A stretch of DNA of 64,000 nt from Arenicellales bacterium (GCA_965202615.1 OZ241837.1:136347-200346), one strand, 5' to 3'; numbered from the stretch's first letter, positions 12,835 through 23,561 are shown. Translations and numbers: made by a program. Notes: a model not told the origin generated them from the sequence alone.

Positions 12835-13653
12835 TCATTCACCGCGCTCAATTGCACGGGCAAGTCCGTCCATGAGCCCGGATACACCACCCAGAGACCA
12901 CCCACCGTCAACCGGCAAAACGATTCCAGTCACATAATCAGCCATTTCCGACGCCAGAAACATTGCAGCCCTTCCAATATCGGATGTCTCTCCAAGTCGC
13001 CCAAGCGGGACCGAATCAGTCACCGTGTCGAGCAATTCCTGGGTAGGCGCCAGTCTTTTCATGCCCTCCGTTCCCTGAATCGGACCGGGTACGATCGAAT
13101 TGACGCGTATCCCATCACTGCCCCACTCCATGGCAAAGGTGCGGGTGATCATGTCAACCCCGGCTTTAGCTGCACAGACGTGCGACTGCAGAATCATTGG
13201 GATGAAAGCCTGCGGTGCGGAGATATTGATAATGGAACTGCCTGGTTTCTTGAGGCAAGGATACGCTGCTCTCAATACGTGATATGTCCCAAGGAGATCA
13301 ATGTTCACGACTGCTGCGAATCCGTTCGGTGACATCTCGCTGGCTTTGGCGGGAAAGTTTCCAGCCGCACCGGAGATGAGCACATCGAATGCGCCGAACT
13401 TTTCGTTGAAAGTGTTAAGGGCAGCTTCAATGTTTTCATAGTCTCTGACGTCCGCACTATAGCCGGCAACCTGACCGCCAGCCTGTTGCAGGTCGTCAAC
13501 GGCGGATGCTACTTTTTCGGGGGATCGGCTGATGACCCCGATATTTGCGCCGGCTTCAGCAAAATCTTTCGCGACACCCAGGTTGATGCCGCTCGTTCCG
13601 CCTGCGACTATGACAGTTTGGTCTGAGAAATCGAACTCAGAATGATCACTCAT
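12835..13653 (-). CDS. short-chain dehydrogenase/reductase (SDR)
   Basis: The product has the Rossmann motif VAGGTSGINLG. I place the start at ATG 13653 (MSDHSEF...) because the track start at 13662 is a TTG. Confidence 0.85.
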   Translation of the reverse strand: MSDHSEFDFSDQTVIVAGGTSGINLGVAKDFAEAGANIGVISRSPEKVASAVDDLQQAGGQVAGYSADVRDYENIEAALNTFNEKFGAFDVLISGAAGNFPAKASEMSPNGFAAVVNIDLLGTYHVLRAAYPCLKKPGSSIINISAPQAFIPMILQSHVCAAKAGVDMITRTFAMEWGSDGIRVNSIVPGPIQGTEGMKRLAPTQELLDTVTDSVPLGRLGETSDIGRAAMFLASEMADYVTGIVLPVDGGWSLGGVSGLMDGLARAIERGE

Positions 13654-13717
13654 GCCAGGCAATCAATCTGACTGGGGAGACCAGAAACAGATTCGGAAAG
13701 TGGGTGACAAAAATGGG

Positions 13718-13885
13718 TCAGGAAGAGTCAGATTGATTTCCCTGCATTGTCGACAAAACCATGTAGACTGCAGTAATTCCGACTCCCCACCAGGCCACAT
13801 TGACAAGTGGTGAACCAACGAAAGAGTCAAAAGTCGACAAAATGATGCAACTTACAATTGCTACGATTCCCAGAAGATGCTTCAT
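13718..13885 (-). CDS. small hydrophobic protein (55 aa, two predicted TM segments)
   Basis: This ATG..TGA ORF is below the track cutoff and reads MKHLLGIVAIVSCIILSTFDSFVGSPLVNVAWWGVGITAVYMVLSTMQGNQSDSS. A decayed paralogous copy at 17953-18153 keeps the same frame (WGVGIT..LSTM) apart from one stop, which argues that the sequence is coding. Confidence 0.4.
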   Translation of the reverse strand: MKHLLGIVAIVSCIILSTFDSFVGSPLVNVAWWGVGITAVYMVLSTMQGNQSDSS

Positions 13886-15371: not shown

Positions 15372-17612
15372 TTAACGAAAAATGTAGATTGGACTGGACC
15401 AAGTGAAATGCCCGTCTTCGTGGGTAATTCGCACATAGAGTGCATTGTCGCGATGGTTGACAAGCTGGATCCGACGTTTCAGCGATTCTTGATGATGCGG
15501 GTTGACATCGGGCAATCGAAAAACCCTGATTCTGCGGTCGATGCCACCATTCGCAAAGATCAACTCATCGCGTCCGATATCCTCAATCGATATCGTTTCC
15601 TTCACCAGCTCAGTGTTGATTTCGAGATTCCCTGCATACGGCGATTTCAAGACGGCATCAAATCCTCCGAATCCACCCGTCGTCAAGGCTGTCCATTCAA
15701 CTCGCCCGTTTTCTGTCTGCTCGAATTTCTTGTCCAGATTGTAGCGATTGATCGGAGTTAGCGATTCAAACTCGTTACCGGTCAATTGGGCAAACCCATC
15801 CCAAATAGTCTCGCGGCCGCGACCCCGATACTCTGACCCCTCCCACAGTATGCGAATGCGTCTTCCAAGACTCTGTTCATCATAAGGTCGATAGACTTCA
15901 ATAGTCTCCAGTCCATTTCGAATATCTATCCTCTCAATCGGAGATGGGCTATGCAGGTCAATCGCAAAGGTTACCGCTTCTTGATCAGACCGCACAATGT
16001 CGCCCATCATTGCCCGATTGCAGGGTTTTGCCTCCTCCTTTCCATCGGTGCCTTCCAAAATAAGCTCAGCAGTCTGATCAAATATCACGTGCGTACTCAA
16101 AATGACCCTGTTTCCAGTCGTCCCGTAATGATGTCTCCTTCTCAACCCTTCCATGATGCCCGCTCGGGTCAGCTCGGGAGCCAGCACGCAAGTCAATCCT
16201 CCGTAGGCTCCGAACTTGGTCGCGCCCGGATGCGATGCGCCAGGACGGCCCTTGTGGCCATCTGAATTCGACATTATCCCCACCCGATACCCTTGTTCGA
16301 GTGCGTCCTGAATGAGCCACTCGAAAGTGCCCCAGGCGGAATGAACCTCAACCGCCCTTTCGATTCGTTGATCGTGAGCAATCTTTATGTCCGCGTAGCG
16401 ACCGCCAATGTGAGCAAACACGACACAGTCTTCGTCTTTCAGGACATCAAACAAATCGTTGGCAGAATTGGCATCAGTTTCAATATCTGAATGGTCGTCA
16501 ACCAGGGCATGCGACGAACGGTGAATTTGACGTCCTTCTCGCATGTGCAGAACATTTCGATCACCGCCAAGTCCGGTATTTCCTGACCACTCCCAGCCTG
16601 GAAAGGTGATGAACCGTCCATTTTCAGTAAATTCAGCGGAAAGCTCGTTCAGGTGATTCCAGAAATCGGTCGTGATCTGAAAATCATTCCCTTGGTGAAC
16701 GCAAATGTCGAGAAAAGCCTTGTCACGAGCAAATTCATAAAATTCGCGCGCGGAGTTTGTTCCGATAGTTTCTTCGGACTGCCCATGCAAATCACCCCAA
16801 AATGGCAGCAAGTCACTGCTGTCGACAATTCGACAGGGGTTGCTTCTGGCTACAGTATTGTCATTTTCGTCCAACAACTCGATGATCAAATCGCCGGTCT
16901 CGAGGGCTTGCAGATTTTCGAAAATTCGGGCGAAATTCCCTTTGTTCAAGCGAAGGTTGGATGGCAGTCCGTTGATCTTGAGATTTGAGCGAACCTTGAA
17001 TTGAGTATCACACTGATCAGAAGGATTTCCCCAGCGATCAACTCCTTTTACGCAGAGCCGAAACGCTTGCGATTGTCTTCTCAACGTCGGGAGAACTGCC
17101 TGGTAGACAACGGGTGGACCTGAAACAATCTCAATGACCGGCTGGTTCGGGAGAACAACGTAATCGTAAGTCGCGATGGCATCGACCAAAACTCGAAACT
17201 CAAATGTCTTTTCGCAAAACGTCTGGACCCTGATTCCCGGGCTTCCTTGGCGACGGTCGCCAAACCTCACTATGATTTGGTCTCCCTCTCGCAAAAAACC
17301 TCGTACAACCTTGATGTAGAGCGTCTTGTCCCATGGACGTATATTCCTTTTGGGGTCATATTCGACATGCAGCACCGCTCCGTTCGAGGCTTCAACTGTT
17401 GTGTAGTTTGGCGCACTCGGGTTATCAAACTGGGGTCTGCCCATATCTGAAGCAAATCTGTGGACGACCTTAATGGAACCTGTATCGTCGATTCCAAAAT
17501 ATCCGGCCGTATAGACGAGGCTAAATTCTTGAAATGATCCTGCTTCAAATTGACCTTCAGGAGAAATCGTTGCAGACCCCATCTTGTGGGGGAGATAAGT
17601 TGAATGCGGCAT
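15372..17612 (-). CDS. large conserved hypothetical protein, DUF3604/PHP-like metal-dependent hydrolase candidate
   Basis: This is a 746-aa uninterrupted ORF with an ATG start. It has a GDLHGQSE motif and later His/Asp clusters (HIGGRY, SNSDGHKG) reminiscent of PHP-type phosphoesterases. The family assignment is tentative. Confidence 0.7.
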   Translation of the reverse strand: MPHSTYLPHKMGSATISPEGQFEAGSFQEFSLVYTAGYFGIDDTGSIKVVHRFASDMGRPQFDNPSAPNYTTVEASNGAVLHVEYDPKRNIRPWDKTLYIKVVRGFLREGDQIIVRFGDRRQGSPGIRVQTFCEKTFEFRVLVDAIATYDYVVLPNQPVIEIVSGPPVVYQAVLPTLRRQSQAFRLCVKGVDRWGNPSDQCDTQFKVRSNLKINGLPSNLRLNKGNFARIFENLQALETGDLIIELLDENDNTVARSNPCRIVDSSDLLPFWGDLHGQSEETIGTNSAREFYEFARDKAFLDICVHQGNDFQITTDFWNHLNELSAEFTENGRFITFPGWEWSGNTGLGGDRNVLHMREGRQIHRSSHALVDDHSDIETDANSANDLFDVLKDEDCVVFAHIGGRYADIKIAHDQRIERAVEVHSAWGTFEWLIQDALEQGYRVGIMSNSDGHKGRPGASHPGATKFGAYGGLTCVLAPELTRAGIMEGLRRRHHYGTTGNRVILSTHVIFDQTAELILEGTDGKEEAKPCNRAMMGDIVRSDQEAVTFAIDLHSPSPIERIDIRNGLETIEVYRPYDEQSLGRRIRILWEGSEYRGRGRETIWDGFAQLTGNEFESLTPINRYNLDKKFEQTENGRVEWTALTTGGFGGFDAVLKSPYAGNLEINTELVKETISIEDIGRDELIFANGGIDRRIRVFRLPDVNPHHQESLKRRIQLVNHRDNALYVRITHEDGHFTWSSPIYIFR

Positions 17613-17837
17613 TCCAGTGGAGGTTGTCGTAACCGGATAAAAGGTTTTCGAAGGTGGAATTTAGTGAAATAGAGCGCAATTGCCCATCGGTTGCGCTATC
17701 GTTCGTACATTAAACACAAAACAATCCACGTTGTGTATTTGGAAAATTCGCTCTACGTAAATCAAATAGATTCAAAATCAGATTGGATGCTCGTGCATCA
17801 AGGATTCTCTAACATGACTTATTGGGACAGTTAAACG

Positions 17838-18153
17838 AAAATTCTTTTGCGACGATCAGATTGATGCTGCTCGTTCCGCCTACGCCTATGACGATTTAGG
17901 CTGAGAAAATGAACTCGGGATGATCGCTCATATCGAGCAATCAATCGGACCGTCAAGCAATTGATAGAACCGGAAATTGGCAGAGGAGATGTGTCAGGAA
18001 GCGTCGGATAGGTTTCTTTCCATTGTCGACAAATCTATGTGGACGATAGTAATACCGACTCCCCACTATGCCGCATTGACAAGTGCAGAACCGAAGACAC
18101 ATCGATTCCGCTAGCCTACCACCTATGAACCCCATTTGCTTCAGAGAATCCAT
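17838..18153 (-). pseudogene. decayed duplicate of the SDR 5' end plus the small membrane ORF
   Basis: The segment aligns by eye at roughly 75-80% with 13561-13885. The SDR-like start reads MSDHPEFIFSA then a stop. The small-ORF homolog has an in-frame TAG. Confidence 0.6.
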
Positions 18154-18435
18154 TTCCTTATTAAACCAAGAGGGAATCGCGCGTCAATTCAACGGGTTAT
18201 TGATCTCAAAATTCCCTCTGTCCCATCGCTCTGTCTGGCTGCGGTCCCTCGCCGAAATAGAACCATGCGGTTTCCCGCCCCGCCGTGTTGTCCACACAGC
18301 GGGGCGGGGTAAACTACGCCCCTGACCGCAAACTTTGATGTTTGCGGGACTGCCTCGGCCGCTTGATACTGGCCAGAGACAGCCAGTTTGACTGTGCTTG
18401 ACACAACTATTCACTGGCACTATTGAAATTTGTTC

Positions 18436-18494
18436 TTGACTTTATTTGTCTATCACTGTATAAACGTCCTTAGGACGTTTATACAGTGATAGAC
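18436..18494 (+). promoter_or_regulatory. sigma70-like promoter (TTGACT-17 nt-TATAAA) overlapping a perfect 47-bp palindrome
   Basis: The -35 element is at 18436-18441 and the -10 element at 18459-18464. The palindrome GTCTATCACTGTATAAACGTCCT-T-AGGACGTTTATACAGTGATAGAC spans 18448-18494. Confidence 0.6.
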
Positions 18495-18508
18495 ACTTAA
18501 ATTTTGTA

Positions 18509-18828
18509 ATGCAAATACAAAGGCTTACAAGAGCTAAAATTTTCTTGTCTCGGCTCTAGGAGCGACAAATCTGCCCGCCGTCACTCCGTACAAGTTTTTC
18601 CGTTTGCTTGAAGCCATGTATCGAGAGTGGCAAAGCCTCTACCTGAAACATGACCAACCGATGCTGAGCGACTACCTCAGAGGATTGTCAAAAACCTAGT
18701 CAATGCCAAACAGATCAGACGTTACAACGACTATAGTACTCGACTCATTCGCATTCTTGATGCACCCGGGCGTTCGGCTGAAGAAATCGTTTGCCTGGCC
18801 TATCCGCTGTGCTACATATCTCACTTGT
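18509..18828 (+). pseudogene. 5' fragment of an AbiEi-family gene (frameshifted, truncated)
   Basis: The fragment is about 80-85% identical in DNA to the first ~320 nt of the intact gene at 21156-20839. A 1-nt deletion gives a TAG after 16 codons, and homology stops abruptly at 18828. Confidence 0.75.
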
Positions 18829-19381
18829 TGATCGGCGTGGCCGCAAGTACCTGACTGCGGTCGAGCGACAGAGGTTTGTCAAGGTGGCAGAAACCGATCC
18901 GACTCCTATAATCCGGACCTTTACGCTGACCTTGGCCAATACCGGTTACGAGACGCTGGCGGCGCGCTATTGCGACGTTGACCTGGACAACCTATCGCTT
19001 CGATTTAAAAAGCTCAAACGCCGTAAGTACATGTGGCGGGAAGTGGCAGTGCCACAGGATCTGATTTGAGCCATTGACCTGGTGTACTCGGTACACGCTA
19101 CGCAACTCCGGCCTTGAGGGGCGATACGGAGATTGTGGGTATTCAATCGTGCAACTGTTTCGAGACATGTAAAGCAGTTAATGACCAAGCCAGATATCGA
19201 GGGGCCGCAAGCGTAGGTCAAAGGATTGCGTCATGGTTTTGGTGTGGCTACCATTTAGGCAGGCGTACCGTTGCCGACAATCGCTGCAGTGCTTGGTAAC
19301 GCTAAAATCGAAACCACCGCGATTTACACCACGGCCATCATCATGAAGGCACGCGAACAACTGGCCAGAGTGTGGTCGTAG
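18829..19381 (+). pseudogene. tyrosine recombinase/integrase pseudogene (four in-frame stops, no frameshift)
   Basis: A single frame reads ...RRGRKYLTAVERQRF...LTLANTG...DVDL...KGLRHGFGVATI*AGVPLPTIAAVLGNAKIETTAIYT...ARVWS*. Internal stops lie at 19067 (TGA), 19115 (TGA), 19214 (TAG) and 19256 (TAG). The integrase box II region is conserved (HxxR..., terminal Y in TAIY). Confidence 0.75.
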
Positions 19382-19406
19382 CGAGCTGAGAGGCTTGAAT
19401 TTTATG

Positions 19407-20282
19407 CTAGGGGTTGGGCCAGGGTAATCGCCGATAAAAATCAGCCACCCGTTCAAAGCAGTCACCAAAATCCGGCAGATCCGAAATTTCGAGTTCGAGC
19501 GCGTGCCATTCGAAACCAGATCTTTTTTTGATTTCCGGATCGTTGATTGAGTCGGGCGTTGGAGATATGTCCCTAGATTCACATTTTTGAAAGAGTGATT
19601 CGACGATCTCAGCAGGATCTGAACCAGGCACCTGAATCAGAATACCCAGATCATAAACGTCCTGGCGCCGATAGCGATTGCGCTTTTTTTGCTCAAGGAC
19701 TGCGCGATATTTCTCCGCGATCATATCGTTCAGGGAATAAGCCGACAGCGTTTTTCCGTCAGCCAATTCTAAAATCTGAACTTGGCTCGTTATTTCCTTG
19801 AAGCTAATGTCGAGCTGGACGACATTGCTCGCTTGCCCTTCTCTGAGCCTCTCTTCCTGTATCGTGCCGCGGGCTGCATATCCAATTTTTATTTCCAGAG
19901 CGGGAAAATTAGCATTTGGATATAGATTGTGCGGACGCCCTTCTATCGACTGCACTTGTAGGACAAAATCTGCATGGCCAAGTGCTACGGCCATGCGGCG
20001 CAACGCAGGATCCAAAAGATTGCGCAGTTCATCTGCAGTACGATCATCCGGATAATAATCCGATGAAGTTGAAAAATCGATATCGCTGGTCTGGCGATCG
20101 CTGCCATATCTAAGTCCCATCAGTACGCCGCCTTTCATATACAACCGGTCCGCCAGAAACGGTACTATTGCAATGGCGTATAAAATGATTTCAGTCATTT
20201 GACGCTGAATGTAAGTCGTTCGATCCGCCCTAACGCTGTCGATCCATTCAGTTAAATTGACCTTAATGTTTGGTTCAGACAT
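19407..20282 (-). CDS. abiEii: AbiEii/AbiGii-family nucleotidyltransferase toxin (type IV TA / abortive infection)
   Basis: The 291-aa product has the NTase motif KGGVLMGLRYGSDRQTSDIDF. It has an 8-nt overlap with the upstream abiEi gene. Confidence 0.8.
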   Translation of the reverse strand: MSEPNIKVNLTEWIDSVRADRTTYIQRQMTEIILYAIAIVPFLADRLYMKGGVLMGLRYGSDRQTSDIDFSTSSDYYPDDRTADELRNLLDPALRRMAVALGHADFVLQVQSIEGRPHNLYPNANFPALEIKIGYAARGTIQEERLREGQASNVVQLDISFKEITSQVQILELADGKTLSAYSLNDMIAEKYRAVLEQKKRNRYRRQDVYDLGILIQVPGSDPAEIVESLFQKCESRDISPTPDSINDPEIKKRSGFEWHALELEISDLPDFGDCFERVADFYRRLPWPNP

Positions 20283-21156
20283 TGAGCGAAATCATCCACG
20301 TTTCAGAGTAAACCGGCGCGTAGCTCTTGCTAGGATCCAGTGTTCGGCTGCCGCCTCTTTGTGCCAGATTTTTCCAGGACTCAATTCTTTCATCCTTGAT
20401 TTCCAGCCGCTCCTCGAGTAAGTAGCCAGCGCGAATTTTGGCGGGGTCGCTATTGCATGAATCAACGGCCGTTATAATCTCTTCGATCCAGTCTAATGCG
20501 TGTTTGTCATAGATGTCCAGGACATGAGACATGCCTCCGCACTGCCGCGAATGTTGCAGCATGTCGAGAAATGTCTGGCCGATCGTTGCCAGGCGCTCGC
20601 CGGTGCCTGGTATATTGACACATGCTCCTGCCTTTACGCTCTCGGTTACGTGCAGCCGGCGGCCGCGAACCGTCTCGGGATGCCCAATGTAGCGAAGGCG
20701 AACACGTTCAGGTGGCAATGGGCCCGGATCCTCTGCCATGATTTCGGCAAATCGGGCGTTTGCCGTTTCCCTGTCGGGACGGGTGCAGGTAAGAACCCTG
20801 GAAGAGCGGTCGGTCAATCCCCATCTTTGCATAGCTGACAGGTGAGATATGTAGCACAGCGGATCGGCTAGGCAAACGATTTCTTCAGCCGAACGCTCGT
20901 GCGCATCAAGAATACGAATGAGTCGGACACCATAGTCATTGTCACGTCTGATCTGGTTGGCTTTGATTAGGTTTTTGACCACTCTGAGATAGTGATCCAA
21001 CATCGACTGGTCATATCTCAGGTAGAGATTTTGTCCCTCTCGATACATGGCCTCAAGCAAACGGAAAAACCTGTACGGAGTGATCGCGGCCAAATTTGTC
21101 GCTCTTAGAGCAGCGAGAAGATAGTTTTCAGCGCGTGTAAGCTTTTGATTTTGCAT
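20275..21156 (-). CDS. abiEi: AbiEi-family antitoxin / transcriptional regulator
   Basis: The 293-aa product has a central CYISHLSAMQRWGLT block typical of AbiEi/COG5340 proteins. It lies directly upstream of, and overlaps, the NTase gene. Confidence 0.7.
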   Translation of the reverse strand: MQNQKLTRAENYLLAALRATNLAAITPYRFFRLLEAMYREGQNLYLRYDQSMLDHYLRVVKNLIKANQIRRDNDYGVRLIRILDAHERSAEEIVCLADPLCYISHLSAMQRWGLTDRSSRVLTCTRPDRETANARFAEIMAEDPGPLPPERVRLRYIGHPETVRGRRLHVTESVKAGACVNIPGTGERLATIGQTFLDMLQHSRQCGGMSHVLDIYDKHALDWIEEIITAVDSCNSDPAKIRAGYLLEERLEIKDERIESWKNLAQRGGSRTLDPSKSYAPVYSETWMISLNV

Positions 21157-21405
21157 TGGAAATACTTAAGAGATTGGCCATAATACTGTATAAACGTCCT
21201 AAGGACGTTTATACAGTATTATGGCAAGTAAGTCAAGCACAAAAATTAGTAGTGTCAGTGGATAGTTGAATCAAGCACAGCTGGCTGGCTCGACCCCACG
21301 TCGAGCGTCCGAGACAGCCCCGCAAACATCAAAGTTTGCGGTCAGGGGCGGGAACCCGGATGGTTCTATCTAGGCGAGGGTTCGCACCAGGCAGAGCGAT
21401 GGGAC
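20839..21405 (-). repeat. right arm of the ~0.6-kb inverted repeat (includes the functional abiEi 5' end, promoter and palindrome)
   Basis: This arm is the reverse-complement partner of 18220-18828. Confidence 0.8.
21177..21236 (-). promoter_or_regulatory. abiEi promoter (TTGACT-17 nt-TATAAA) overlapping a perfect 49-bp palindrome (candidate AbiEi operator)
   Basis: On the minus strand the -35 element is at 21236-21231 and the -10 element at 21213-21208. The palindrome GCCATAATACTGTATAAACGTCCT-A-AGGACGTTTATACAGTATTATGGC spans 21177-21225. The ATG at 21156 lies 20 nt further on. Confidence 0.65.
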
Positions 21406-21749
21406 CCGCATGAGCACTTCGGGGTGGACCGAAATGGCTGTAGGTTACGGTTTAAATATCCCAGAAGTTACGGAGTAATTTCCCACTTTTGGGTTAGCCG
21501 GTGATCAGCCGCGATTATAGAACAGACCCTCCTTTTTTGATTTTGGTGGTCGTCCGCGTCTTTTTTTCGGTAATTCGATGTCGCTATTGACCCAAATTTG
21601 TAAATAATCCAAGTACATTGTTAAATGACGCTCAATATTTCTAAGTAATTCAAATGCTTTAAAATTAGAAATTCAATATTGTTTCAAGTTGAAAACTAGT
21701 GTTTCATTGATATTGCAAATTGAACTAATTCGATCGCCAATCACGGATT

Positions 21750-22748
21750 ATGCAAGTCCTTGACTTATCTCACGAGTGTAGCGCTCAACGTTTAAACCAA
21801 CAGGTTAACGGTGCGTTTGCCTGGACAAAAGATGACATCAATCCATATGACTGTCTTATTGAAGTCAGCGAGGTTGTGCACGAAGAATTCATGCACATGG
21901 CTGATGTCATCGAAGCCAACCCTTTGCCTACGGTACTGAGACAACCGGATCAGTTTGAAATCCCGCATACGCTGGAACTAATGGCAGAGGTGAAACACCG
22001 ACTGAACGAGTCGCCCGGTGTTGTTGTACTCGACAGTCTGCCGCTCGACGAGATGACCAATGAACAAGCGATTGATATCTTTTGGACGATCGGACAGGTC
22101 ATCGGTCAGAACGTGGCCCAGAAATGGGAAGGTACCATGGTTTACCACGTACGCGATACCGGCGCCAAATATGAGTATGGCGTTCGCGGGTCGTACACCA
22201 GCGTTGAGCTCCAGTTTCACAACGACAATGCTTTCGGGATTGTCTTGCCTCACTACGTGGGTCTTATGTGTTTCAGGCCTTCGCTGGAAGGTGGATTGAG
22301 TCGCTTTTGCAGTCTTTACACGATTCATAATCGACTGCTTGAAAAATTCCCGGCCCAGCTTGAGCGCCTGTACCGTCCCGTTTTTTGGGACCGACAGGCT
22401 GAGCACGCCGAAGGGCAGCCAATCGTGGCGCAAGCTCCGGTCTTTCGATATGAAGACGGACGTTTGTGGACTCGGGCAAATCCGAGCCTGATCATGAAAG
22501 GGTACGACGTGGCGCAAACTCCCATTGACAGCGAAACGGAAGACGCGGTTCTAGCGCTCAAGGAAGTTTCCGAAGACCCTTCGCTGTGGTTTGAACTGCC
22601 AATTGAGAGAGGGCACCTCCAATACATCAACAATATTGATATCGCTCACTATCGAAGCGAATTCATTGATCACCCTGATGCCGATCAGAAACGCCATCTT
22701 GTCCGCTCATGGCATCGCGATGACGGCGCGGTTACCTACGACGGGTGA
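21750..22748 (+). CDS. TauD/TfdA-family Fe(II)/2-oxoglutarate dioxygenase
   Basis: The 332-aa product has the HxD iron motif (FHNDNAF) and a distal His. Length and motif order match the TauD / gamma-butyrobetaine-hydroxylase-like family. Confidence 0.75.
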   Translation: MQVLDLSHECSAQRLNQQVNGAFAWTKDDINPYDCLIEVSEVVHEEFMHMADVIEANPLPTVLRQPDQFEIPHTLELMAEVKHRLNESPGVVVLDSLPLDEMTNEQAIDIFWTIGQVIGQNVAQKWEGTMVYHVRDTGAKYEYGVRGSYTSVELQFHNDNAFGIVLPHYVGLMCFRPSLEGGLSRFCSLYTIHNRLLEKFPAQLERLYRPVFWDRQAEHAEGQPIVAQAPVFRYEDGRLWTRANPSLIMKGYDVAQTPIDSETEDAVLALKEVSEDPSLWFELPIERGHLQYINNIDIAHYRSEFIDHPDADQKRHLVRSWHRDDGAVTYDG

Positions 22749-22814
22749 GCTGTCACTGGACTTGCTGGTGTATTCCGTTATCGAGCGAATTCAATTCTTT
22801 CGTAGTGACCGAAC

Positions 22815-23561
22815 ATGACCAAACTAAGCATTAACCTCAACAAAATTGCGCTGCTCAGAAACGCCAGAGGAATGGATTTCCCGAAGGTCTTGGATTTTGC
22901 CGAACTCTGTGTGAAATACGGCACTCACGGCATCACCGTGCACCCCCGACCCGATCAGCGACACGCAACTTACCGGGACGTATTCGAACTCGCGGAGTTC
23001 TGTCAGGATCACCCTGATGTTGAGTTTAACGTCGAAGGCTACCCGACTGATGATTTTCTGGACGTCGTTAAATCGGCCAAACCCGATCAATGCACGCTGG
23101 TACCTGATGCACCGGACCAGATCACGTCAGATCACGGATGGAACACAATAACCGAGTGTGAAAATCTGATCCCGATTCTTGCCGACCTGAGAGAGCACGA
23201 CATCCGGACCAGCATCTTTTTAGACCCCGATACCGGATTGATTCCGTCTGCGGCCAAGACCGGCGCAGACAGAATCGAACTCTATACCGAAGAGTATGCA
23301 CGGACTTACGGAACGGATCAAAATGAGGCTGTTTTCAACCAATACCAGGAAACGACTGAACTGGCCCAAGAATTTGAACTCGGTGTCAACGCGGGGCACG
23401 ACCTGAACCAGACAAACCTGGCCAAGTTTCTAACCATCCCGGGAATTTTGGAAGTCTCGATCGGACATGCACTGACGATCGAAGCTTTGCTGGAAGGCTT
23501 TGAGCCGACCGTACGATCGTACGTCTCAATTGTCGAAAGAACCGGTACCACTACCCCATGA
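22815..23561 (+). CDS. pdxJ: pyridoxine 5'-phosphate synthase
   Basis: The 248-aa product has the N-terminal motif LSINLNKIALLRNARG...THGITVHPRPDQRH characteristic of PdxJ. Confidence 0.85.
   Translation: MTKLSINLNKIALLRNARGMDFPKVLDFAELCVKYGTHGITVHPRPDQRHATYRDVFELAEFCQDHPDVEFNVEGYPTDDFLDVVKSAKPDQCTLVPDAPDQITSDHGWNTITECENLIPILADLREHDIRTSIFLDPDTGLIPSAAKTGADRIELYTEEYARTYGTDQNEAVFNQYQETTELAQEFELGVNAGHDLNQTNLAKFLTIPGILEVSIGHALTIEALLEGFEPTVRSYVSIVERTGTTTP

Follow-up and report, generated by a model that had tools for sequence, protein, structure and literature searches.

Is an AbiE operon that stands between two long, promoter-bearing inverted repeats, next to a recombinase gene, part of a genetic switch, or is it what a rearrangement left behind? 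The question is raised by a 64,000-nucleotide (nt) stretch of an Arenicellales bacterium genome (GCA_965202615.1 OZ241837.1:136347-200346), which carries abiEi and abiEii in its TauD-DUF3604 interval; AbiE is a type IV toxin-antitoxin and abortive-infection system (PMC3985639, PMC7319586). The whole 64-kb stretch is called the window here, and coordinates refer to it unless a locus label (L001, L093 etc.) is given. A sequence-only reading had seen in the locus the geometry of an invertible switch of the shufflon or phase-variation type. Judged from the sequence comparisons below, the invertible-switch interpretation is not supported. We think it probable that a live AbiE operon lies beside a rearrangement scar, made up of the 5' wreck of a second copy and a dead recombinase, and that the locus is not a switch; most likely it is the wreck of recombinase-borne AbiE cassettes. 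The elements on which the argument turns are these:

18220-18435, plus strand: left up-block, non-coding, homologous to 21237-21405, with a hairpin at 18326-18347 and a left-only 41-nt GC hairpin at 18274-18316.
18436-18464, plus strand: left promoter, sigma-70-like, orphan copy (TTGACT 18436-18441, 17 nt, TATAAA 18459-18464).
18441-18501: left operator-like palindrome (30+1+30, 93%), with a perfect core at 18448-18494, overlapping the -10 hexamer.
18509-18828, plus strand: abiEi' pseudogene fragment, codons 1-106, the whole winged-helix domain, frameshifted by the loss of 1 nt near codon 9 and the gain of 2 nt near codon 58.
18818-18828, plus strand: abiEi'-recombinase joint, with microhomology between abiEi TCACCTGT and recombinase TCACTGGT and ACATATC before both.
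18829-19381, plus strand: pseudogene of a catalytic-domain-only tyrosine recombinase (Pfam PF00589, 6.8e-9), ~196 aa when intact.
19407-20282, minus strand: abiEii, 291 aa, intact, a DUF1814 nucleotidyltransferase toxin (Pfam PF08843, 4.8e-28, above the cut-off; PADLOC AbiEii, 6e-96, full length).
20275-21156, minus strand: abiEi, 293 aa, intact, antitoxin and predicted autorepressor (PADLOC AbiEi, 1.6e-89); codons 1-106 (20838-21156) are the coding part of the right arm.
21177-21225: right operator-like palindrome (24+1+24, perfect), overlapping the -10 hexamer of the live abiE promoter.
21208-21236, minus strand: live abiE promoter (TTGACT 21236-21231, 17 nt, TATAAA 21213-21208).
21237-21405, minus strand: right up-block, homologous to 18220-18435, with a hairpin at 21320-21341.

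The inverted repeat was confirmed. Its left arm (18220-18828) pairs with the reverse complement of 20838-21405, so that the inner right border falls at 20838 and not at the 20839 first proposed, and the identity, previously put at roughly 80%, is 83.6% in a MAFFT alignment (468 of 560 aligned columns). Most of the 57 gap columns come from the 41-nt GC-rich hairpin found in the left arm only. BLASTN of the window against itself aligned 18317-18828 with 21350-20838 (81.6% over 521 nt, E 1e-138) and, as a second match, 18220-18281 with 21405-21345 (87%). Furthermore, a repeat search resolved the arms into collinear inverted pairs with 82-95% complementarity, on the outer side 18220-18238/21387-21405, 18240-18281/21345-21386 and 18317-18386/21281-21350, and on the inner side 18392-18487/21185-21280, 18536-18682/20982-21128 and 18687-18828/20838-20979. 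The longest perfect tracts between the arms measure 33, 32, 27 and 23 nt. Homology ends sharply, at 18220/21405 on the outside, where both arms share the boundary GTCCCATCGCTCTG.CTGG, and at 18828/20838 on the inside. All the parts that had been named before were located in each arm: a non-coding up-block that holds the hairpin CCGCAAAC-N6-GTTTGCGG (N6 being TTTGAT in the left arm), the promoter TTGACT-17-TATAAA with a long palindrome across its -10 hexamer, and abiEi codons 1-106. Two abiE 5' regions thus stand tail-to-tail, each promoter lying at the outer end of its arm and directed toward the centre. An assembly artefact is excluded, since L001 and L093, assembled independently from other samples, show the same collinear structure.

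The promoter hexamers and their 17-nt spacing are identical in all aligned abiE copies; a consensus promoter scan demands T at position 6 of the -10 hexamer and so did not list TTGACT-17-TATAAA. The up-block had no counterpart in the other fetched loci except those of same-species strains, and its hairpin, searched as an exact 24-nt string, gave zero matches in the JGI metagenomes. Rfam models, applied to 16500-23000 at permissive E-values, produced only spurious miRNA-hairpin matches on the palindromes. A search for tRNA and tmRNA genes found none near the arms, and hence no att site of the tRNA type.

The right arm is the 5' end of an intact, bicistronic abiEi-abiEii operon, as the sequence-only reading had it; PADLOC and Pfam support both genes, which overlap by 8 nt. 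AbiEi matched nothing in Pfam or NCBIfam and, by sequence, nothing in the PDB. Its AlphaFold model (pLDDT 90) is closest among PDB folds to Rv2827c (1ZEL) and S. agalactiae AbiEi (6Y8Q), with probability 1.0 and TM ~0.5, and places a winged helix at residues ~1-85, so that the coding part of each arm would span the whole DNA-binding domain. This 293-aa family, recognised only by PADLOC PDLC02237 and by fold, has >1100 homologues in the protein collection, mostly from marine and sponge-associated metagenome-assembled genomes. Among strains the live abiE coding sequence is 98.4-99.7% identical (abiEii, 98.4-99.1%) and the flanks ~95%.

Autoregulation of AbiEi via promoter inverted repeats has been published (PMC7319586, PMC3985639), and a palindrome over the -10 hexamer is consistent with negative autoregulation by the window's AbiEi. 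The palindrome core (TATAAACGTCCTWAGGACGTTTATA) is kept upstream of AbiEi homologues down to ~55% identity. The operator palindrome had 6 matches in JGI, every one a single copy, and was absent from the viral contigs searched, which also held no relatives of AbiEi or of the recombinase. The core CGTCCTWAGGACG with flanking TATAAA/TTTATA was observed at window 21177-21225 and 18441-18501, at L002 9950 and 12495, at L004 7946 and 9985, in L006-L010 and at L096 ~7950. Its outer arms vary in mirrored pairs, the palindrome staying perfect. Orphan copies show this too (the left copies of the window and L093; the stubs of L002 and L004), as do strains whose AbiEi is 99% identical. The mirrored changes could come from selection for symmetry in a binding site, or from correction of quasi-palindromes by template switching, which can produce such changes without selection. 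The live promoter-operator (21157-21235) of the window matches that of L001/L093 at only 79%, the adjoining coding sequence at 99%. By this contrast, recombination seems to have exchanged the promoter module between strains, breaking at the abiEi start codon.

The left arm was said to be frameshifted and abruptly fused, at 18828, to a dead tyrosine recombinase, and so it proved, with two indels in the stub and four internal stops in the recombinase (19067, 19115, 19214 and 19256). The pseudogene has no start codon and lacks ~7 N-terminal codons. Arg-I (RIS) has been lost with a 9-nt deletion, and the catalytic His through a change of LGH to LGN; Tyr is kept, and the R-K-H-R-H/W-Y set of PF00589 is incomplete. 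A terminator-like hairpin (19382-19397) directly follows the recombinase stop, and no other recombinase copy was found in the 64-kb window.

Intact relatives of the recombinase are 195-198 aa long, start with GTG or ATG and are 74-78% identical to the pseudogene, and three of them (L083-L085, 74-76% identical) were compared together with their flanks. All three have a core-like palindromic site, TGAAACAGAAT-N3-4-ATTCTGTnTCA, 118 bp before the start, and intact relatives are flanked by 22-43-nt inverted repeats that contain it (L083 7883-7925/11654-11696; L085). Copies of the core site were observed at L083 7883-7925, 11654-11696 and 5052, at L084 7883, and at L085 7883 and 9577. Within the 43-nt inverted pair of L083 lie the recombinase, two cargo genes and the 3' fragment of a recombinase. 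What accompanies intact recombinases varies: DUF6998/DUF900, a methyltransferase with HNH, or EcoO109I restriction-modification genes with PIN_12. These small recombinases and their core sites may represent a family, not yet characterised, of small elements that carry defence genes or of invertible segments. Two intact relatives (P0128 and P0123) align weakly, end to end, with the FimB/FimE models NF007370/NF007371, at 27-31 bits against cut-offs of 221-222; their better NCBIfam matches, also under the cut-offs, are Xer and integron-integrase models. By profile, the recombinase looks Xer-like.

Comparison with the intact L083-L085 genes and with the right arm defines the joint closely, recombinase homology beginning at 18818 and abiEi homology ending at 18828. 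The abiEi sequence reads ...ACATATCTCACCTGT|CAGC, the recombinase ...ACATATCACTGGT|CGATC and the window ...ACATATCTCACTTGT|TGATC. The joint cost the recombinase its start codon, ~7 codons and everything upstream, including the palindromic core-like site, and it is identical in the window, L001 and L093. The two reading frames differ there, which rules out an in-frame fusion protein of the AbiEi winged helix-turn-helix (wHTH) domain and the recombinase. An integration att site inside abiEi is possible for the ancestor; the present joint looks like illegitimate recombination.

How these parts have evolved was followed in strains. The TauD-DUF3604 interval was recovered from four further strains (L001, L092, L093 and L095) at ~94-96% nucleotide identity, and the window, L001 and L093 retain both arms and the recombinase. 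Lesions differ from strain to strain. The stub is still in frame in L093, as a 114-codon open reading frame, and has the 1-nt deletion in L001, and both the 1-nt deletion and the 2-nt insertion in the window. Recombinase stops 19067 and 19256 are common to L093, L001 and the window, 19115 and 19214 occur only in L001 and the window, L093 has one stop of its own, and the 9-nt deletion that removes Arg-I is private to the window. The recombinase is dead in all three strains. Substitutions among the three strains by codon position 1/2/3 number 9/6/6 in the stub and 8/6/2 in the recombinase, compared with 20/6/91 in the flanking housekeeping gene DUF3604 and 3/1/10 in abiEii. On this even spread, stub and recombinase have both been unconstrained since before the strains diverged. 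The left -35, -10 and palindrome core are intact in the window stub and in the stubs of L002 and L004, loci of a sister lineage; in L001 the left -35 is TTGATT, and the L093 left palindrome core has a G-to-T change.

The earlier history of the stub was different. Over codons 1-62 its identity is 81.5% with the right arm and 84.2% with abiEi of L002/L004. Its differences from L002 abiEi fall 14/12/32 on the three codon positions, and those of the right copy 15/11/34; this shared third-position bias suggests that the stub diverged mostly as a working gene. It is also a mosaic, nearer the L002 type in codons 36-70 (86-88% vs 81%) and nearer the right arm in codons 71-106 (88-91% vs 75%), which implies recombination or gene conversion in its past. 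Of abiEi' codons 107-293, and of a second abiEii, the window locus retains nothing. On these comparisons the stub is best read as a second, diverged abiE copy. A scar of two related elements, offered by the sequence-only reading as its alternative, is close to the evidence as regards the two elements, but their orientation is tail-to-tail and not head-to-head.

The sister lineage of Arenicellales (L002/L005, L004 and L003) carries related loci at another chromosomal site, with AbiEi 74-76% identical. There abiEi-abiEii is followed by a convergent 3' remnant of the same recombinase (an 80% match to window 19311-19402) and then by an abiEi' stub in direct orientation, ending at codon 62 in all three, which points to one older event. 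A second promoter-operator precedes the stub in L002 and L004 and is missing in L003, where a further deletion joins abiEii codon 20 to abiEi' codon 5. The linkage of abiE with the recombinase is thus ancestral, in a module that has occupied different chromosomal sites and was probably a mobile cassette. Neither stub nor recombinase was found beside distant members of the AbiEi family (≤62% identity) or at the P0004 locus, whose AbiEi is 66% identical. At about a quarter of 79 AbiEi-family loci (L003-L082) abiEii is absent, truncated or split, so that orphan antitoxins are common. One locus (L029) has two complete cassettes ~7 kb apart in direct orientation, and another (L082) has a small recombinase, 35% identical, upstream of abiEi.

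The history that we favour would run as follows. In the ancestor, the live operon would have faced, tail-to-tail and beyond a convergent recombinase gene, a diverged second copy of abiEi, and this copy would have been functional for most of its divergence. An illegitimate, microhomology-mediated event would then have joined the stub, at codon 106, to the recombinase at about codon 8 and in a different frame, deleting the rest of the second abiE copy together with the recombinase start codon, promoter and upstream core site. Stub and recombinase would afterwards have decayed neutrally, frameshifts and stops arising strain by strain. The 0.6-kb inverted repeat would have arisen incidentally, from two homologous 5' regions that face each other, and would not serve the cell as a recombination substrate. 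The live abiEi-abiEii would still be transcribed on the minus strand from TTGACT-17-TATAAA, whose -10 hexamer lies inside the 49-bp perfect palindrome. Characterised AbiEi proteins suggest by analogy that the N-terminal winged-helix domain would bind this palindrome and repress the operon, the AbiEii nucleotidyltransferase being neutralised by the C-terminal domain.

Several observations weigh against this history. Both arms have a ~200-bp up-block that L002-type loci lack, as would be expected more readily of an in-situ inverted duplication than of two independent acquisitions. Between the arms, the innermost 142 nt are 89% alike and the remainder 82%, which points to past gene conversion and hence to at least one recombination between them. 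That a stub accompanies abiE in two lineages may not be chance, and the orphan promoter and palindrome core are intact in most copies. Orientation is known from assemblies only, and rare inversion is possible. Finally, a complete second AbiE cassette, or a live recombinase beside abiE of the window's clade, was found in none of the relatives examined, so that the ancestral layout is inferred and not observed. By the same token, an origin of the left arm in an independent second AbiE element, which the sequence-only reading had thought would refute the switch, is borne out in part, no complete element of this kind having been found in any relative.

Among the other explanations, the one that survives best, though we regard it as unlikely, is a single in-situ inverted duplication of up-block, promoter, operator and 106 codons, with never a complete second cassette. 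It would explain why both arms have the up-block and the same sharp outer boundary when the up-block is unseen upstream of related abiE loci, and why nothing is left of abiEi' codons 107-293 or of a second abiEii. The divergence of the stub tells against it. By the codon 1-62 identities, the stub is no nearer its neighbour than the other lineage, when a recent neutral local copy would be far nearer the right arm than L002, and the third-position bias of its differences from L002 indicates long divergence as a functional gene. The mosaicism, moreover, requires extra recombination events anyway.

Somewhat less likely again is a role for the duplicated promoter-operator-wHTH module as a recurrent, semi-functional part of recombinase-borne AbiE cassettes, in which the element would recombine or integrate via the abiEi 5' region and leave an AbiEi-controlled orphan promoter-operator. 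If so, the orphan could serve as a decoy or antisense regulator, and could swap DNA-binding-domain-plus-operator modules with the live gene via gene conversion or rare inversion.

A switch operating now or until recently, with the recombinase or RecA flipping 18829-20837, and so changing which arm joins abiEi-abiEii and which the recombinase, to give phase-variable AbiE defence, is in our judgement very improbable, even though inverted repeats enclosing a recombinase gene have the fitting geometry and intact relatives of the recombinase are themselves flanked by core-bearing inverted repeats and align, if weakly, with FimB/FimE-type invertase models. The perfect tracts between the arms, the signs of gene conversion in their inner part, and the fact that the second abiEi stub is inverted here and direct in L002-L004 would also be in keeping with flipping. 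However, the recombinase is dead in all three strains, with its start and upstream site gone, and the core site is absent from the window, with none in 17000-22500 even when up to 4 mismatches are allowed. The inner boundary is a one-off, out-of-frame microhomology joint, the same in all three strains, and stub and recombinase evolve neutrally. The arms, 83.6% identical with indels, would be a poor RecA substrate. The window, L001 and L093 assemblies all have the same orientation, the other two strains differ through deletion and not inversion, and the flipped form was seen in none of the five strains' assemblies. Nor would inversion swap which genes receive the promoter, as had been proposed: both arms carry promoter, operator and codons 1-106, and connectivity would be equivalent but for the frameshifts of the left arm. 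A crossover upstream of the coding region would therefore be silent, and one in the inner coding part would set the frameshifted stub before abiEi codons 107-293 and abiEii, leaving a toxin without its antitoxin.

Least probable of all is a functional orphan left promoter-operator, acting as a decoy that titrates AbiEi, as an AbiEi-repressed promoter of antisense transcription across the dead recombinase toward the abiEii 3' end or, in strains such as L093, as the source of a lone AbiEi DNA-binding domain: the -35, -10 and palindrome core stay intact in the window, L002 and L004 stubs though the coding parts decay, changes in the outer palindrome arms of orphan copies come as mirrored pairs, L093 keeps its 114-codon open frame and stubs recur in two lineages, but the coding part is neutral and was frameshifted twice independently, the -35 (L001) and palindrome core (L093) have been altered, the second promoter-operator is lost in L003 and the whole left arm in L092/L095, a terminator-like hairpin follows the recombinase stop, and mirrored changes can arise without selection by quasi-palindrome template switching.

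The wider TauD-DUF3604 interval is a strain-variable defence hotspot of gain, loss and truncation, present in four configurations in the five strains. L092 and L095 lack the segment corresponding to window 17775-20149, that is, the left arm, the recombinase and abiEii beyond ~codon 44, and have 413 bp in its place; with abiEii cut at ~codon 44, abiEi is left an orphan. The replacement includes, after the cut abiEii, a 48-codon 5' fragment of a defence-type gene (MYRTRVYIDGFNLYYG…, PADLOC HEC-09, 1e-9; L092 8993-9139, L095 8969-9115). A cassette site lies between the right arm and TauD (window 21446-21737; L001 7757-9620; L092 6325-7735; L093 5806-7622). The window and L095 have this site empty, L001 has a 354-aa gene there with weak HSDR_N / type I methyltransferase similarity, and L092 and L093 have an AAA_14/DUF4143 gene (PADLOC PDC-S01, 7.6e-86). 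Two further features of the window lie just outside the arms:

17799-18092, plus strand: left-flank debris, consisting of a 45-nt remnant of the 5' end of the L001 354-aa gene (17799-17843) and an SDR 5' copy (17839-18092).
21440-21572: ~110-nt repeat just outside the right arm, bordering the strain-variable cassette site.

The SDR copy at 17839-18092 is 76% identical to 13561-13816 and covers the first ~34 codons and the upstream region of the SDR gene. A third SDR 5' copy lies beside the AAA_14 cassette in L093/L094 (L093 7178-7393), so that the AbiE unit of L093 is bracketed by direct copies. The SDR 5' copies may be traces of an older segmental duplication. The ~110-nt repeat (…GGTTTAAAT…AGTTACGGAGTAA…CCACTTTTGG…CCGGTGATCAGCCG…CCTCCTTTTTTG…) was seen at window 21440-21546 and, near recombinase cassettes of other Arenicellales contigs, at L084 1587-1697 and L083 9771-9832, and had no match in Rfam.

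The live operon has much in common with the AbiE systems of Lactococcus, S. agalactiae (AbiEi-AbiEii) and M. tuberculosis (Rv2827c-Rv2826c), namely bicistronic overlapping genes, a DUF1814 toxin and a promoter inverted repeat (PMC3985639, PMC7319586), together with a two-domain antitoxin that has an N-terminal winged helix and is close in size to Rv2827c. Unlike these, the window's 293-aa AbiEi family has no Pfam model, its operator consists of a single long, perfect palindrome that covers the -10 hexamer, and the locus has an extra decayed promoter-operator-wHTH stub and a dead recombinase. The locus thereby shows an AbiEi family whose palindromic operator is deeply conserved, and it documents the decay of AbiE cassettes in a defence hotspot, with toxin loss, orphan antitoxins and orphan promoter-operator stubs. 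In agreement with the sequence-only reading, which had known of no such arrangement for AbiE, a search of a collection of papers found none combining AbiE with invertible elements and recombinases.

Invertible switches (fimS with FimB/FimE, gut-bacterial invertons, Rci shufflons and hsdS inversion) resemble the locus in that inverted repeats enclose a segment with a tyrosine recombinase, and FimB/FimE are like the intact form of that recombinase in being small (~196 aa) and catalytic-domain-only. The likeness goes no further. The window recombinase is a pseudogene of a family that scores ~30 bits against a FimB/FimE cut-off of 221; the window repeats are 0.6 kb long and 84% identical, have no core site and were seen in one orientation in assemblies; and with promoter and 5' end in both repeats, inversion leaves connectivity unchanged. 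Geometry alone is thus no proof of an inverton, even where long promoter-bearing inverted repeats surround a recombinase gene, and strain comparison with substitution counts by codon position tells switch from scar quickly.

A further parallel is found in recombinase-associated defence cassettes and hotspots, recombinases having been documented as neighbours and markers of defence loci (PMC13552941). The recombinases of that study are of the small serine type, whereas the Arenicellales one is of the tyrosine type and the window element is dead. With their defined palindromic core site and varied defence cargo, the intact ~196-aa catalytic-domain-only tyrosine recombinases of Arenicellales merit study. 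As in such hotspots, intact relatives of the recombinase adjoin varied defence cargo, and the TauD-DUF3604 interval varies by whole defence genes and holds fragments of others.

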